Shown here piece by piece: positions 12,573-16,756 of a stretch of 64,000 nucleotides of DNA. The position numbers and the translations under genes are program-made. The notes below the pieces were generated by a model. It did no database searches, was not told the origin of the DNA, and worked only from the letters and a program-made list of their open reading frames with translations. This DNA is from Kofleriaceae bacterium (GTDB taxonomy: Bacteria; Myxococcota_A; Polyangia; Haliangiales; Haliangiaceae). Position 1 is the stretch's first letter, and every line of letters begins with the position of its first letter. Location of the stretch: NCBI GenBank assembly GCA_036265355.1, contig DATAPF010000683.1, forward strand, positions 35,457 through 99,456, given 5' to 3'.

Positions 12573-15500
12573 ATGGTAGAACGGGTTCTCTCTGGGCGCA
12601 CGCTGGGCGAGTTCATCCTGCGCGAGCAGATCGGCGAGGGTGGCCACGGCGTCGTGTACCGCGGCGAGCAGCCGCTGCTCGAGCGCGATGTGGTGATCAA
12701 GGTGATGCGCGAGCGCTGCTGTGACGAGGTCTCGCAGCGGCGCTTCCTGCGCGAGGTGAAGCTCGCATCGCTGCTCGACCACCCCTACGCGGCGCACGTC
12801 TACGCGTTCGGAGTCGAAGCTCAGGACGGCCTGCTGTGGATCGCGATGGAGCGGGTGCGGGGCGTCCCGCTCGACCGCTGGCTGGAGGCACACGGGCCGA
12901 TGCCGCTCGAGCAGTTCGTGCCGTTCTTCGAGTGCGTCGCCCAGGTGGTCCACGCCGCGCACGAGCAGGGGATCGTGCACCGCGATCTGAAGCCGTCGAA
13001 CATCATGGTCGTCGAGCACGGGGGCCGCCTGTTTCCCAAGCTCCTCGACTTCGGGATCGCCAAGGCAGACCTCGAGGTCACGCTCCCGGTGCCGGCGCGC
13101 TGGCCGGACGGCTCGCTCACCCCGGATCGCGAGCTCGCGGAGCCCGACCCCGACGACGTGGACACGCTGCGCATCCTGCGCCGGCCGCGCTCCGCGCCGC
13201 GCATCCGCGTCGACCCCGACCCCGCTGGATCGTCGGCGACCCTGCCCGGGCTGACGCCGTTCGGCGCCTGCATCGGCTCGCAGCCCTACATGGCCCCCGA
13301 GCAGTGGTGCAACGCCGAGGCCGTGGGTCCGGCGGCCGATGTCTACGCGCTCGGCGTCGTCGCCTACCAGGCCCTGAGCGGGCGCCTGCCGTTCATCGCG
13401 GACACCACCGGCGAGTACTTTCTCCAGCACCGCCATGAACAGGTGCCGTCGCTCGGCGGCAGCTTCCCCTCGGACCTCGATCGTGCCATTCGATGCGCGC
13501 TCGACAAGTATCCCGAGCACCGCCCCGGCAACACGCTGGAGCTGGCCTCGGCGCTGCGGGCGGCGCTGCGGGCGAGCAAGCGCGAGCACCTCCGGGCCTC
13601 GGCGCAGCAGTGGCACGATCAGGCCGAGGTACCGGGCTTGCTGTGGCGAGCCGACGTGCTCGAAGACGCCATGCGCAGCGTCCCCAGGGAGGCGCTCAGC
13701 AACCTGGAGTGCTCGTTCGTCGCCGAGAGCCAGCGGCGGATCCGGCGTACCCGCTGGATCCGGAGGTCGCTCGTCGCGCTCGCCGTGGGGGTCGCGATCG
13801 GCGGGTTCCACTACCGCGCGGTGATGCAGGCACGCATGGCCGACCAGATCGCCACCGAAGCCGAGGTCGAACAGGGCCGGCAAGCGCTGCTCCACGGCGA
13901 ATCGGCAGAAGCGCTGCTCCACCTCGCACAGGCATATCAGCGCGGCGACCACTCGCCGAGCTCGATGTTCATGCTGTCGCACGCGCTGGCCCCGTGGCTG
14001 GCCGAGCGCGCGCGTTTCACGACGGCCTCGGGGCCGATGTGGTCGGCGGCGTTCTCCCCCGACGGTCATCAGATCGTCACGACCGACAGCCGAGGTGCGC
14101 GGGTCTGGGATGCCCAGACCCACCAGCTGCGGTTCGCGCTGCCGCACGGTGATACCGCTTATCAGGCCGTCTACAGCGCCGATGGTACGACGCTCGTCAC
14201 CGCCGGCGGCGACGGCGTCGTCAAGATGTGGAGCGCGGCGACCGGAGCGCTGCTGCGCGCGCTGAGGCCACCGCGACAGGCGACCGGCAGTCCGCCCAGA
14301 TATTTCGCGGTCGGGGTGTCGCCCGATGGCCTCGTCGTCGCGGCGATAGACAGTCAAGGTAAGGTCGCGCATGCATGGGACGCACACACCGGCGCTCTGC
14401 TCGCGGAGATACCCAACGACGGCTCATGGAATCCGGCACTGGCGTTCAGCGCCGACGGCCGCTGGCTCGCGACGAGCGGCGGCGACGACGTTCGCGTGTT
14501 CGACACCCGGACGTGGACGCAAGCGCTCACGCTCTCCGGGCAGCACATTCGCACGCTTGCCTTCGACCCCACAGGGCCGCGGCTCGTCACTGGCTCGTCG
14601 GAAGGCGACGCCTCGATCTGGGCGATTCCGAGCGGTCAGCGGCTCCGACACCTGCGTGACGTCGGTGAGCCGATCGATGTGGTCGCGTTCTCGCCCAGCG
14701 GCGAGCTCGTCGTCACCGCAAGTCGGGACGGTGCGGAGCAGGTCTGGAATGCCGGCTCGGGGCACGTGGTGAGCCAGCTCAACTATCACCGCACCCGGCT
14801 CACATCGGTCGAGTTCGACTCGTCCTCGCAGCGCCTGCTCGCCGCCGGATTGAAGGGCGCCGTGGTCGTCTCCGACGTCGCGCAGGGCCTGCCCATCGCC
14901 GTGCTTGGAGGTGCGGTGAACGCCGTCCGGAGCGCACACTTCGATCCGACCTCGCGCCGTGTCATCGGCGCATCTCTGGACAGCACAGTACGGGTATGGG
15001 ATGCGATCCCACCATATCGCCGCTGGAGCACGTTGCCCATCGGTGTCGACTGCGACACCGCGGAGAGCCTCGAGCCCGATCAACGGTTCATCGCACTCAG
15101 CTGCCAGAACCACGGCACTCACGTCTGGGACACAGCACGCGGCGAGTTACTCGCTGAGCTGCCTGCGGTAACGCTGGTCGACGGAGACTATTACTCAGCA
15201 TTTCCGGCGGTGTCCGCTGCGGGTGATCGCGCCGCCATCGCGCGCGGCCATACCGTGGAGATCTATGCGCTGCCGGGCGCCCACCTCATCCGCACGATCG
15301 CGCACGGTGCACCGGTCAACGCAGTCGCCTTTGCCCCCCTCGGACACGATGTCATCAGCGGTGCCATCGACGGCTCGCTGTTCGTGACGCGGGACGATCG
15401 CGAGCCGCTCGCGCTGCCAGCGTCGGCCCATGGTATCGACGTCGCGGGGTTTCTCGGCGATCGTCGGATCGTGGCAGTCGATGCGAGCCGCCGGCTCCGG

Positions 15501-16100
15501 GTCATCGACACGCAAAGTCATGCAGTCCTCGCAGAGCTCGAGGCCCCCACCCGCGTGAGGTCGCTGCGACTGTCGCCAGGTGGGCGCCTGGTCACGATCC
15601 CGGTGCGAAGCAAACCGGCTCCGCCCGTGCTGTGGGATCTCGAGAGCTACCGTATCGTGGCTCAGCTCGCGGGCCACGCCGGTCGAGTGTTCTCGGCTCG
15701 CTTCGTGCGCGGTGGCCACGACATCATGACCTCCGCTGCGGATGGGACGGCGCGGCTGTGGGACGCCCGGACCGGTCGGCCCAGACAGATATTCTCGGCC
15801 GGCGTCGCTTTCTTGTTCGATGCAACGCTCTCGCCCGATGGTGCCATGGTCGTGGCCGGTGGTGCCGATGGTTCATTGCGATTCTGGGATGCCACCACAG
15901 GGCACCAGCTCTGGGCGCTCCCGGTGCACCGGTCCTACGTGATCGGAATCCACTTCGAGGGCGATGAGATCGTGACGCGCAGCTTCATCGGGGACGTCGC
16001 CCGCTGGTCCATGCTCCAGCCGATCTCGCCGGGGGTGCTCGGCAATCTGACCAGGTGCCAACTATCATTCTGTGATCCCACTATTAAGGTGGGTGAATGA
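12573..16100 (+). CDS. Hanks-type Ser/Thr protein kinase fused to a long WD40 beta-propeller region
   Basis: Kinase motifs are GEGGHGVVY, VVIKV, HRDLKPSN, DFGIAK, APEQ. A hydrophobic segment (LVALAVGVAIGGF) follows, then about 14-16 WD40-like units (..FSPDG..IVT...DG..RVWD..). GGAG lies about 10 nt upstream of the ATG. Confidence 0.95.
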   Translation: MVERVLSGRTLGEFILREQIGEGGHGVVYRGEQPLLERDVVIKVMRERCCDEVSQRRFLREVKLASLLDHPYAAHVYAFGVEAQDGLLWIAMERVRGVPLDRWLEAHGPMPLEQFVPFFECVAQVVHAAHEQGIVHRDLKPSNIMVVEHGGRLFPKLLDFGIAKADLEVTLPVPARWPDGSLTPDRELAEPDPDDVDTLRILRRPRSAPRIRVDPDPAGSSATLPGLTPFGACIGSQPYMAPEQWCNAEAVGPAADVYALGVVAYQALSGRLPFIADTTGEYFLQHRHEQVPSLGGSFPSDLDRAIRCALDKYPEHRPGNTLELASALRAALRASKREHLRASAQQWHDQAEVPGLLWRADVLEDAMRSVPREALSNLECSFVAESQRRIRRTRWIRRSLVALAVGVAIGGFHYRAVMQARMADQIATEAEVEQGRQALLHGESAEALLHLAQAYQRGDHSPSSMFMLSHALAPWLAERARFTTASGPMWSAAFSPDGHQIVTTDSRGARVWDAQTHQLRFALPHGDTAYQAVYSADGTTLVTAGGDGVVKMWSAATGALLRALRPPRQATGSPPRYFAVGVSPDGLVVAAIDSQGKVAHAWDAHTGALLAEIPNDGSWNPALAFSADGRWLATSGGDDVRVFDTRTWTQALTLSGQHIRTLAFDPTGPRLVTGSSEGDASIWAIPSGQRLRHLRDVGEPIDVVAFSPSGELVVTASRDGAEQVWNAGSGHVVSQLNYHRTRLTSVEFDSSSQRLLAAGLKGAVVVSDVAQGLPIAVLGGAVNAVRSAHFDPTSRRVIGASLDSTVRVWDAIPPYRRWSTLPIGVDCDTAESLEPDQRFIALSCQNHGTHVWDTARGELLAELPAVTLVDGDYYSAFPAVSAAGDRAAIARGHTVEIYALPGAHLIRTIAHGAPVNAVAFAPLGHDVISGAIDGSLFVTRDDREPLALPASAHGIDVAGFLGDRRIVAVDASRRLRVIDTQSHAVLAELEAPTRVRSLRLSPGGRLVTIPVRSKPAPPVLWDLESYRIVAQLAGHAGRVFSARFVRGGHDIMTSAADGTARLWDARTGRPRQIFSAGVAFLFDATLSPDGAMVVAGGADGSLRFWDATTGHQLWALPVHRSYVIGIHFEGDEIVTRSFIGDVARWSMLQPISPGVLGNLTRCQLSFCDPTIKVGE

Positions 16101-16123
16101 CTGGTCCTGTCGGCGATTGTAGG

Positions 16124-16129
16124 TATAAT
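16124..16129 (+). promoter_or_regulatory. TATAAT -10-like hexamer 6 nt upstream of the small-peptide ATG (possible leaderless transcript)
   Basis: Sequence aggTATAATgtgcatATG. No Shine-Dalgarno motif precedes ATG 16136, and no good -35 box at canonical spacing was seen. Confidence 0.25.
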
Positions 16130-16135
16130 GTGCAT

Positions 16136-16345
16136 ATGAAGAAAACCATGACCAAGCTGGTGCTGAAACGCGAAATGATCCGGACGCTTGACCGTATGCA
16201 ACTCGAGGGGATTCGCGGCGGTGGCGACGACGCCGCCGCGCGCGCCGATTCGGGGAACGGAGCTGGCTGCCCGGGGCTCATGGACACGGGGAACGGAGGC
16301 GGCTGCCCGGGGCGGCCTGACCACAAGCCGGCGGTTGGTGGATAA
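16136..16345 (+). CDS. 69-aa peptide with a double-glycine-type leader and a duplicated GNGxGCPG core (putative secreted or modified peptide precursor)
   Basis: Sequence is MKKTMTKLVLKREMIRTLDRMQLEGIRGG | GDDAAARADSGNGAGCPGLMDTGNGGGCPGRPDHKPAVGG. The leader follows the Lys-rich, L.L.KE.IR.L....L..V.GG pattern of GG-leader peptides. Start taken at the ATG inside listed ORF 16097..16345. It sits in an AT-richer pocket. Confidence 0.55.
   Translation: MKKTMTKLVLKREMIRTLDRMQLEGIRGGGDDAAARADSGNGAGCPGLMDTGNGGGCPGRPDHKPAVGG
16252..16312 (+). repeat. Two near-identical 25-nt direct repeats with a 36-nt period inside the peptide core
   Basis: ggggaacggagCTggctgcccgggg (16252-16276) and ggggaacggagGCggctgcccgggg (16288-16312) differ at 2 nt. 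They encode GNGAGCPG and GNGGGCPG. Confidence 0.9.
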
Positions 16346-16756
16346 CCTGCACCGGCATGCTGGTCACTGATCGACATCGATCCGTGGACTTCGTGATCGG
16401 CTGCATCCGGCGCGTGCTGGCCCAGACCGGCAACAACGCGACACCATACGCGAGGGCTCGCGCCGCTTGGAATCCGCTGCTTCACAACGCACCATTTCAC
16501 GACTCGCTGCTGCGGATAGACCTGTTGCAGGAGCGCGGCGCGCACATCGGGAGTGTGTTTCACATGCGCATTCCCGCTCGCCCGCTGGGTTCATGTACAG
16601 CGTGCGACGTTCACCGGATGTTGCGCAAGGCGGCTTTCGCGCGCATGGGCCGGCGATCACCAGGCCGCAAGCTCGTGATCCGGAGCAGGCGCAGCACGGC
16701 CAGCGCGCCGAGCAGCTCGCTGTCACCGAGCTTACCGTCGAGCCGCGCGAGGATTC

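Follow-up and report, generated by a model that had tools for sequence, protein, structure and literature searches.

A probable two-gene cassette of a receptor-type Ser/Thr kinase and a LanA-type leader peptide in Kofleriaceae

In ComC/ComD with ComAB, in PlnA/PlnB, and in the nisin and subtilin systems that act through NisK and SpaK, the gene for the peptide signal adjoins the gene for the membrane kinase that senses it. Receptor kinases that carry a propeller domain are known as well, among them the receptor Ser/Thr kinase PknD of Mycobacterium tuberculosis with its NHL propeller. No genetically linked peptide partner is known for PknD, PkwA or the WD40 protein 2YMU, and the ligands of bacterial Hanks-type receptor kinases are almost all unknown. 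Here I examine the gene of a small precursor peptide in a stretch of 64,000 nucleotides (hereafter the window; contig DATAPF010000683.1, positions 35,457 to 99,456) from a Kofleriaceae bacterium, a metagenome-assembled genome (MAG) of 12.0 Mb from the Myxococcota. An earlier note, made from the sequence of the window, had described this gene as an orphan. Instead it has a conserved partner in the kinase-WD40 gene that directly precedes it, and genes for maturation and export are found elsewhere in the genome.

Like the peptide genes of ComC/ComD and NisA/NisK, the gene in the window is conserved beside, and co-oriented with, the gene of a predicted membrane kinase, the leader would likewise be processed by a C39 ABC exporter, and several private channels could coexist. 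The differences are that the kinase in the window is a Hanks Ser/Thr kinase with a predicted periplasmic double WD40 domain and not a polytopic histidine kinase, that the cassette is without a response regulator, and that the host is Gram-negative. The layout of kinase domain, single predicted transmembrane segment and propeller is shared with PknD, and the solved WD40 sequences closest to those of the window's kinase are 2YMU, a 14-blade WD40 protein from Nostoc, and the WD40 domain of PkwA (5YZV), a protein that is not known to have a transmembrane segment. The class III and IV lanthipeptide synthetases (LanKC, LanL) also have a Hanks-like kinase domain encoded beside a precursor with Ser, Thr and Cys, but the window's kinase is without a lyase or cyclase domain and has a predicted transmembrane segment and WD40 repeats instead.

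On the side of the peptide, many divergent and scattered precursors with a conserved leader and very few maturases in trans recall the prochlorosins (ProcA/ProcM). These are class II (LanM) products with a leader of the Nif11 family and are not known to have paired receptor genes. The leader itself is closest to those of the pinensin-related class I LanAs of Bacteroidetes type (NF038153; PMC7268733), with which the window's peptide has the skeleton K-23, L-22, L-20, [K/R]-18, L-12 and Gly-Gly in common, besides a core with Ser/Thr and Cys and a host genome with LanB, LanC and a C39 exporter. It differs from these LanAs in a leader score below the curated cut-off (18.8 versus 22 bits), in the absence of LanB, LanC or LanT from its cluster, in a Cys-poor core with a distinctive D-[ST]-G-x3-4-C-P unit, in its myxobacterial host, and in its fixed neighbour, which is a receptor Ser/Thr kinase gene and not a set of biosynthetic genes. 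Taken by itself, the peptide adds a new member to a leader class already known; for the pairing of a kinase-WD40 gene with a LanA-type peptide gene, no description was found in the literature searched.

That a receptor-type Ser/Thr kinase and a LanA-type Gly-Gly-leader peptide form a conserved two-gene cassette is, in my estimate, very probable. Within the host genome, the 3' flank is intact in six paralogous kinase-transmembrane-WD40 genes, and in five of these a leader peptide gene comes next on the same strand. When the C-terminal 300 residues of the kinase were compared with 185,579 species genomes, the scan gave 17 close homologues (at least 49% identity), all in other Kofleriaceae MAGs; a leader-type open reading frame (ORF) starts 0-350 nt downstream in 16 of them, and the 17th ends at the contig edge. 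The approximately 60 distant WD40 matches from the same scan include not one with such a frame downstream. Further kinase copies in four genomes (G135, G042, G056 and G132) are also followed by a leader peptide, and the kinase-WD40 gene lies directly upstream in all six metagenome contigs that were looked up for family peptides, two of which peptides are orthologues of the one in the window. No third conserved gene of the cassette was found among the neighbours within 3 kb downstream. An FHA gene upstream of the cassette occurs in two contexts only (L176:1953-3059 and L179:1902-3095, an FHA-domain gene divergent from the kinase in both), and there is none upstream of the kinase in the window.

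In most family members the stop codon of the kinase gene overlaps the start of the peptide gene (ATGA, TGATG or TAATG), which implies co-transcription and probably translational coupling. The orthologue group to which the window belongs has its kinase stop 35 nt earlier. Translated in the kinase frame, the spacer gives LVLSAIVGIMCI and a stop, ending as an ATGA overlap with the peptide ATG, and paralogous kinases end in C-A-I-V-x-x before the stop and overlap the peptide start. To judge from its translation, the spacer is a relic of an ancestral kinase 3' end with this C-A-I-V C-terminus. In the orthologous locus, at L174:2127-2148, a 22-nt tandem duplication at the kinase 3' end shifts the kinase stop; the C-terminus of the kinase is being remodelled in this orthologue group. 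A longer peptide frame of 82 codons, from an in-frame ATG at 16097 (ATGA overlap with the kinase stop, AAGGTGG upstream), was considered and rejected, as L174 has an in-frame TAA there; since this ATG is not conserved, the peptide starts at 16136, or possibly at a GTG at 16130.

The earlier note had also drawn attention to a TATAAT hexamer that ends 6 nt ahead of the ATG at 16136 and to the want of a good Shine-Dalgarno sequence, and both observations are confirmed (an AGG at -15 to -13 is all there is). In 22 of 31 family members a -10-like hexamer has its end at exactly this distance, 6 nt ahead of the start codon, mostly as TATCGT, sometimes as TATCAT, and in the window as TATAAT, and it is kept even where the kinase frame is already closed. 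Where it falls within coding sequence, the hexamer takes its first T from a GCT Ala codon in no fewer than 12 of 12 cases, GCT making up 3.2% of Ala codons genome-wide; the use of so rare a codon points to selection on the nucleotide sequence itself. Such selection may be explained by an internal promoter that gives a leaderless mRNA or by an A/T-rich unstructured site of re-initiation, and both fit. The geometry of the hexamer is exactly that expected under the idea of a leaderless mRNA, which the earlier note had put forward and which gains comparative support from the conservation in the family, though not proof. A simple promoter scan found no -35 partner for the TATAAT, and a simple terminator scan found no terminator 3' of the peptide gene.

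The peptide gene is real. A search of 5.8 billion proteins gave 19 orthologues of 62-87% identity, all of them metagenomic, all called from MKK and all labelled "hypothetical protein". Their leader is almost invariant, and they keep the unit A-D-[S/T]-G-[N/H]-G-x-G-C-P, in which the Cys is constant and the only exchange at the hydroxyl position is that of Ser for Thr or Thr for Ser. When 1.84 billion proteins were searched with a profile of the family, 3712 representative clusters matched at E <= 1e-3; every one of the top matches shows this leader, together with one to three [D/Q]-[S/T]-G-x-C(-P) units, and the 120 top entries listed carry no annotation. The host genome itself holds approximately 49 small ORFs with the same leader. 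The ratio of nonsynonymous to synonymous substitution rates in the leader (0.3-0.9) comes from very few sites and is weakly informative.

The 69-residue ORF with a Gly-Gly leader that had been reported is present (Table 1) and translates as MKKTMTKLVLKREMIRTLDRMQLEGIRGG followed by GDDAAARADSGNGAGCPGLMDTGNGGGCPGRPDHKPAVGG. Its G+C content at codon positions 1, 2 and 3 (0.70/0.55/0.77) is close to that of the kinase gene (0.72/0.51/0.83), and the AT-richer pocket in which it had been placed is measurable as a dip to 0.51-0.53 at 16000-16224, over the kinase 3' end and the leader, versus 0.63-0.72 on both sides. The core has the two-unit layout that had been described, D38-S39-G-N-G-A-G-C45-P-G and D50-T51-G-N-G-G-G-C57-P-G, but counts 40 residues, not 39; the near-identical direct repeats that encode the units are likewise there, but measure 27 nt with 25 identical positions, not 25 nt, at a spacing of 36 nt (12 codons). 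A recent duplication within the core, as earlier suggested, is borne out by the orthologues, some of which have a single unit (57 residues, ending in GCPLLVDHKPAVGG) and are without repeat copy 2, while others have two units, the second decayed in some. The coexistence of both forms means that the duplication is real, recent and polymorphic and that the first unit is the essential one. Independent internal duplications are present in L157, L150, P0038 and P0048 as well, and a duplicated core is, with one to three units per core, a habit of the family. Many cores have a Gly-Gly at their extreme C-terminus (KPAVGG here, window 16337-16342; elsewhere APGG, DWGG, AAGG or KPGG), which may be a second recognition or processing motif.

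Table 1. Features of the kinase-peptide locus, in positions of the window
Feature	Position	Strand	Basis and remarks
Receptor-type Hanks Ser/Thr kinase, 1175 aa	12573..16100	+	Pfam Pkinase + WD40
Predicted single transmembrane segment, aa 398-416, SLVALAVGVAIGGFHY	13764..13820	+	hydropathy and positive-inside flank
Spacer between kinase stop and peptide start, 35 nt	16101..16135	+	junction comparison with paralogues; conserved in orthologues L174, L175
TATAAT, -10-like hexamer, candidate internal promoter	16124..16129	+	sequence; identical in L174, L175
Precursor peptide gene	16136..16345	+	69 aa + stop; sequence, codon-position G+C, orthologues
Leader, 29 aa, MKKTMTKLVLKREMIRTLDRMQLEGIRGG	16136..16222	+	LxLx[K/R]x5L box (-22 to -12), Gly-Gly cleavage motif
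Core, 40 aa, two units, C-terminal tail RPDHKPAVGG	16223..16342	+	translation, core statistics, orthologues
Direct repeat copy 1	16251..16277	+	last two bases of Ser39 codon to first base of Leu48 codon; spans Cys45
Direct repeat copy 2	16287..16313	+	last two bases of Thr51 codon to first base of Arg60 codon; spans Cys57

Hydrophobic residues at -4, -7, -12 and -15 are a general feature of double-glycine leaders, and the leader in the window has I-4, L-7, L-12 and I-15 ahead of G-2 and G-1; L-7 and L-12 are 100% conserved in 33 kinase-linked leaders. The identification as a double-glycine-leader precursor in the earlier note thus holds, with Gly-Gly and hydrophobic layout both present, and the type can be given more closely: by its sequence the leader is of the LxLxKx5L...GG type of class I lanthipeptides, its box (L8-V-L10-K-R12-x5-L18 ... 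G28-G29) fitting LxLx[K/R]x5L...GG. Class I LanAs of Bacteroidetes combine an LxLxKx5L box with a Gly-Gly end, and their cluster includes a C39 protease (Walker et al. 2020, PMC7268733). Residues 1-29 match positions 1-32 of NF038153 (lant_leader_L1a, class I lanthipeptide leader) with an E-value of 1.4e-3, at a score that does not reach the curated cut-off of that model. Nine of 15 family members match the model at E <= 0.1 (best 1.9e-5), and five or six paralogues from the host genome stand above the cut-off. Right-aligned logos display the same skeleton in the kinase-linked leaders (n = 33) and in other leaders (n = 19), the latter including those that adjoin LanB on contig C635 and LanC on contig C72.

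The cores contain one to three D-[ST]-G-x3-4-C-P units, and of 37 kinase-linked cores in a non-redundant set 19 contain a single Cys and 17 contain two. Ser or Thr is found at -5 from the Cys in 55% of units against a background of 15%, with Asp at -6 in 28%, Gly at -4 in 35% and Pro at +1 in 43%, and [ST]x2-6C occurs in 36 of the 37 cores against a mean of 21 and a maximum of 30 in shuffled cores, all figures that are inflated by the relatedness of the cores. In the window, Ser39-Cys45 and Thr51-Cys57 are spaced i+6, a placement fit for (methyl)lanthionine rings. The interchange of Ser and Thr beside an invariant Cys in the orthologues argues that hydroxyl and thiol are both functional, and a conserved pair of this kind would argue for a (methyl)lanthionine ring signature or, less specifically, for a site of phosphorylation or glycosylation. 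The kinase-linked cores have few Cys (1-2) and much Ala, Gly, Asp and Pro, whereas the LanB-adjoining cores are rich in Cys and Thr.

The upstream gene encodes, in order, a kinase domain (residues 1-330), a juxtamembrane helix, the predicted transmembrane segment, a helical linker and two WD40 propellers (approximately 480-1150). The HRD, DFG and APE motifs are present in the kinase and kept in the family consensus. Between DFG and APE lies an activation-segment insert of 70 residues (window 13068-13277, kinase residues 166-235), which varies more within the kinase family than any other part (27% mean identity) and has a predicted local distance difference test score (pLDDT) below 50. An Arg cluster, RRIRRTRWIRR, stands directly ahead of the predicted transmembrane segment, and an Arg-flanked uncharged hydrophobic stretch of 16-19 residues recurs in the paralogues on C614, C634, C650, C11 and C167, as well as in the kinases on C151, C162 and C701, although its sequence is not itself conserved. 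In the AlphaFold2 model (mean pLDDT 77) this stretch is not packed into a domain (pLDDT below 50), and approximately 14 beta-strand blades, the size of a double propeller, extend over residues 478-1147 at pLDDT 80-95. The protein is predicted to be single-pass with its N-terminus inside and its WD40 part, in which Cys827 and Cys844 are invariant, in the periplasm. Pfam gives only Pkinase and WD40, no lyase or cyclase domain, and the matches to NF038150 (81.8 bits, cut-off 650) and NF038151 (33.2 bits, cut-off 575) cover the kinase part only. Full-length paralogues with 45-58% identity are encoded on C650, C11, C614, C634 and C383, and two more end at contig edges. The kinase family is narrow. 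Of 44 same-genus genomes, 6 carry it, with between 1 and 10 copies each, and it was absent from all 47 genomes sampled across 16 other genera of the family.

Several loci depart from the simple arrangement of one kinase and one peptide. Tandem triplets of paralogous peptide genes with nearly identical leaders and divergent cores follow a single kinase gene at L156:383-950 and L163:95-798. Proteins of 1858 and 1575 residues with Pkinase, nSTAND1, a transmembrane-like segment and WD40 repeats are encoded within C151:39701-45495 (L168) and C162:14923-20262 (L169), directly downstream of one leader-type peptide gene on C151 and of two on C162, and they share with the window's kinase the linker that runs from LLWRG through an Arg cluster and a hydrophobic to a helical part. 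On two unrelated metagenome contigs, genes for a WHH/Colicin-DNase polymorphic toxin and SUKH/SMI1 immunity proteins lie 0.7-0.9 kb 3' of the cassette (L178:7879-9052, L179:8025-10182), and in the window a Rhs/teneurin-like toxin gene lies approximately 4 kb downstream of it. The convergent secreted metalloprotease, the only protease that the earlier note could name nearby, was tried as the leader protease and rejected; it is conserved in relatives that have neither cassette nor peptide and missing beside one orthologue of the peptide, and is therefore unrelated to it. The closest genomes (G023, G042) are syntenic with the window only from this metalloprotease rightwards. Within the 410-bp gap between the peptide gene and the 3' end of the protease gene, window positions 16439-16658 are 80% identical to G023:C108:9718-9941, a block that has other genes upstream than the window and across which there is no convincing ORF. 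A comparison of core/WD40 with core/kinase-domain co-variation (11 pairs, rho 0.41) was discarded, as the apparent correlation came from a single orthologous trio and several loci have truncated kinase N-termini, which leaves the result unusable.

No LanB, LanC or C39 exporter gene is present on the 113.6-kb contig of the peptide, in agreement with the earlier statement that neither a C39-peptidase exporter nor a maturase lies near it. Looking for C39 or PCAT exporters elsewhere in the genome, as was then suggested, returned eight C39-domain matches on other contigs, seven of them in large frames of ABC-exporter size, and the genome further has three LanB and three LanC genes. One LanB gene, running off the start of C270 (C270:2-3013, L181), appears to continue on C279 (C279:1-7106, L180), where it is followed by genes for an OEP outer-membrane efflux protein, an HlyD-type adaptor and a C39-ABC exporter (PCAT). 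No precursor gene was found near this block, which is a candidate for a trans-acting hub of maturation and export. LanB is present in all six cassette-bearing genomes and LanC in all five other cassette-bearing genomes tested, against LanB in none of five same-genus genomes of good quality that are without the cassette. Related genomes have more stand-alone LanC than LanB genes, and a HopA1-type (class V) lyase has no match in the host genome. At C72:5027-9482 (L182) a leader peptide gene is followed by a stand-alone LanC gene, with the convergent gene of a 995-residue Pkinase-TPR protein adjoining; no LanB is nearby, and a RHS-repeat protein is encoded at the start of the contig.

I tentatively favour a reading in which the peptide is exported, probably thioether-cyclised, and recognised by the receptor kinase encoded with it, through the double WD40 propeller on the periplasmic side, a proposal that falls a little short of being probable. 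The precursor would be made from the kinase transcript or, as a leaderless mRNA, from the internal -10 element, and its LxLxKx5L...GG leader would guide it to a machinery for maturation and export whose genes lie at other places in the genome. Through the action of LanB and LanC, Ser39 and Thr51 would then lose water and be joined to Cys45 and Cys57 in thioether rings. The cut after the Gly-Gly and the export of the core would fall to a C39-peptidase ABC exporter assisted by HlyD and OEP partners. The mature peptide, with one or two rings, would be sensed in the periplasm by the double propeller, this being the most conjectural of the steps, and the cytoplasmic Hanks kinase domain would relay the signal. 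The several cassettes of a genome would in this way each be a private peptide-receptor channel.

A number of observations weigh against this mechanism. Variability is no greater in the WD40 domains than in the kinase domains (mean identity 58% versus 45-53%), unlike the picture expected for sensors of very divergent ligands, and the conserved part of the peptide is its leader, which would be removed before the periplasm is reached. Related leader peptides also adjoin Pkinase-nSTAND1-WD40 and Pkinase-TPR proteins. The sensor repeats of such nSTAND1-WD40 and TPR kinases are usually taken as cytoplasmic, and these neighbours hint at a cytoplasmic relation between kinase and peptide. The topology of the window's kinase is predicted from hydropathy, its peptide scores below the curated cut-off of the class I leader model, and the co-occurrence of LanB with the cassette, suggestive of a link between the two, is confounded by shared ancestry.

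[quoted passage not shown] The kinase would then be only a co-transcribed regulator, or a sensor for immunity or induction, and no specific receptor. I regard this as unlikely, yet as the most serious competitor of the exported-ligand reading. It would account for a leader class that is that of LanAs, for some 49 such peptides against three LanB and three LanC genes, for a LanB-OEP-HlyD-PCAT hub that has no precursor of its own, and for the genes of polymorphic toxins and immunity proteins that adjoin the cassette in L178 and L179. However, a near-obligate one-to-one adjacency to the kinase gene, with overlap, over dozens of loci exceeds what a generic regulator would call for, and the Cys-poor kinase-linked cores are unlike the Cys/Thr-rich cores that adjoin LanB. 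An unmodified Gly-Gly-leader peptide, similar to a class II bacteriocin or a pheromone, with its cysteines in a disulfide in the two-unit forms or free, seems to me a good deal less likely again. The canonical Gly-Gly layout, the C39 exporters in the genome and the two Cys of the two-unit cores agree with it, but half of the cores (19 of 37) have a single Cys and still keep a Ser or Thr at a fixed distance, and the additional LxLxK box (-22 to -17) is retained although cleavage by C39 does not need it.

A different possibility is that the peptide is a cytoplasmic substrate of its kinase: the Ser or Thr of D-[ST]-G would be phosphorylated while the WD40 part docks the conserved leader, either as the first step of a split dehydration like that of classes III, IV and V, together with a lyase yet to be recognised and a stand-alone LanC, or to yield a phosphopeptide or regulator. 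WD40 domains that do not exceed the kinase domains in variability, the conserved leader and the STAND and TPR arrangements keep this explanation alive. WD40 domain and leader are the conserved partners on their respective sides, the hydroxyl residue is only ever exchanged between Ser and Thr, leader peptides adjoin Pkinase-nSTAND1-WD40 proteins as well as the Pkinase-TPR gene beside a LanC gene, and stand-alone LanC outnumbers LanB in related genomes. It is nevertheless improbable, less so than an unmodified peptide but more so than a scattered lanthipeptide, given that a transmembrane-like segment is conserved between the kinase and WD40 parts, that no lyase was found (no HopA1 match, and a kinase without lyase or cyclase domain that scores 81.8 against the NF038150 cut-off of 650), and that LanB, which needs no kinase, co-occurs with the cassette. 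That the ORF might be a chance open frame in G+C-rich DNA and no gene at all is suggested by its shortness, by the absence of a Pfam match, and by the absence of an orthologue from 60 same-genus reference genomes. This idea is effectively refuted by the conservation in 19 metagenomic orthologues with a near-invariant leader, by the 3712 clusters that match the family profile, by the conserved position behind the kinase gene and by the coding-like G+C at its codon positions, and I give it next to no weight.

If the pairing is functional, it would link the biosynthesis of RiPPs and lanthipeptides to eukaryote-like Ser/Thr kinase signalling, two fields that are usually kept apart. On the exported-ligand reading it would supply a candidate ligand for an entire family of WD40 receptor kinases in bacteria, and would mean that Gram-negative social bacteria signal by ribosomal ring peptides via receptor kinases. 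It would also explain why many lanthipeptide precursors that appear as "orphans" in genome mining lie far from biosynthetic clusters. Each pair of kinase and peptide is a small ligand-receptor hypothesis that is directly testable. More tentatively still, I propose that soil myxobacteria of the Kofleriaceae may operate up to about ten such private channels per genome, each with a thioether-ring ligand encoded behind its own single-pass WD40 receptor kinase. These channels would be a bacterial counterpart of the peptide/receptor-like-kinase signalling of plants, with lanthipeptide parts that work in trans as building blocks, and they might serve in kin or social recognition.

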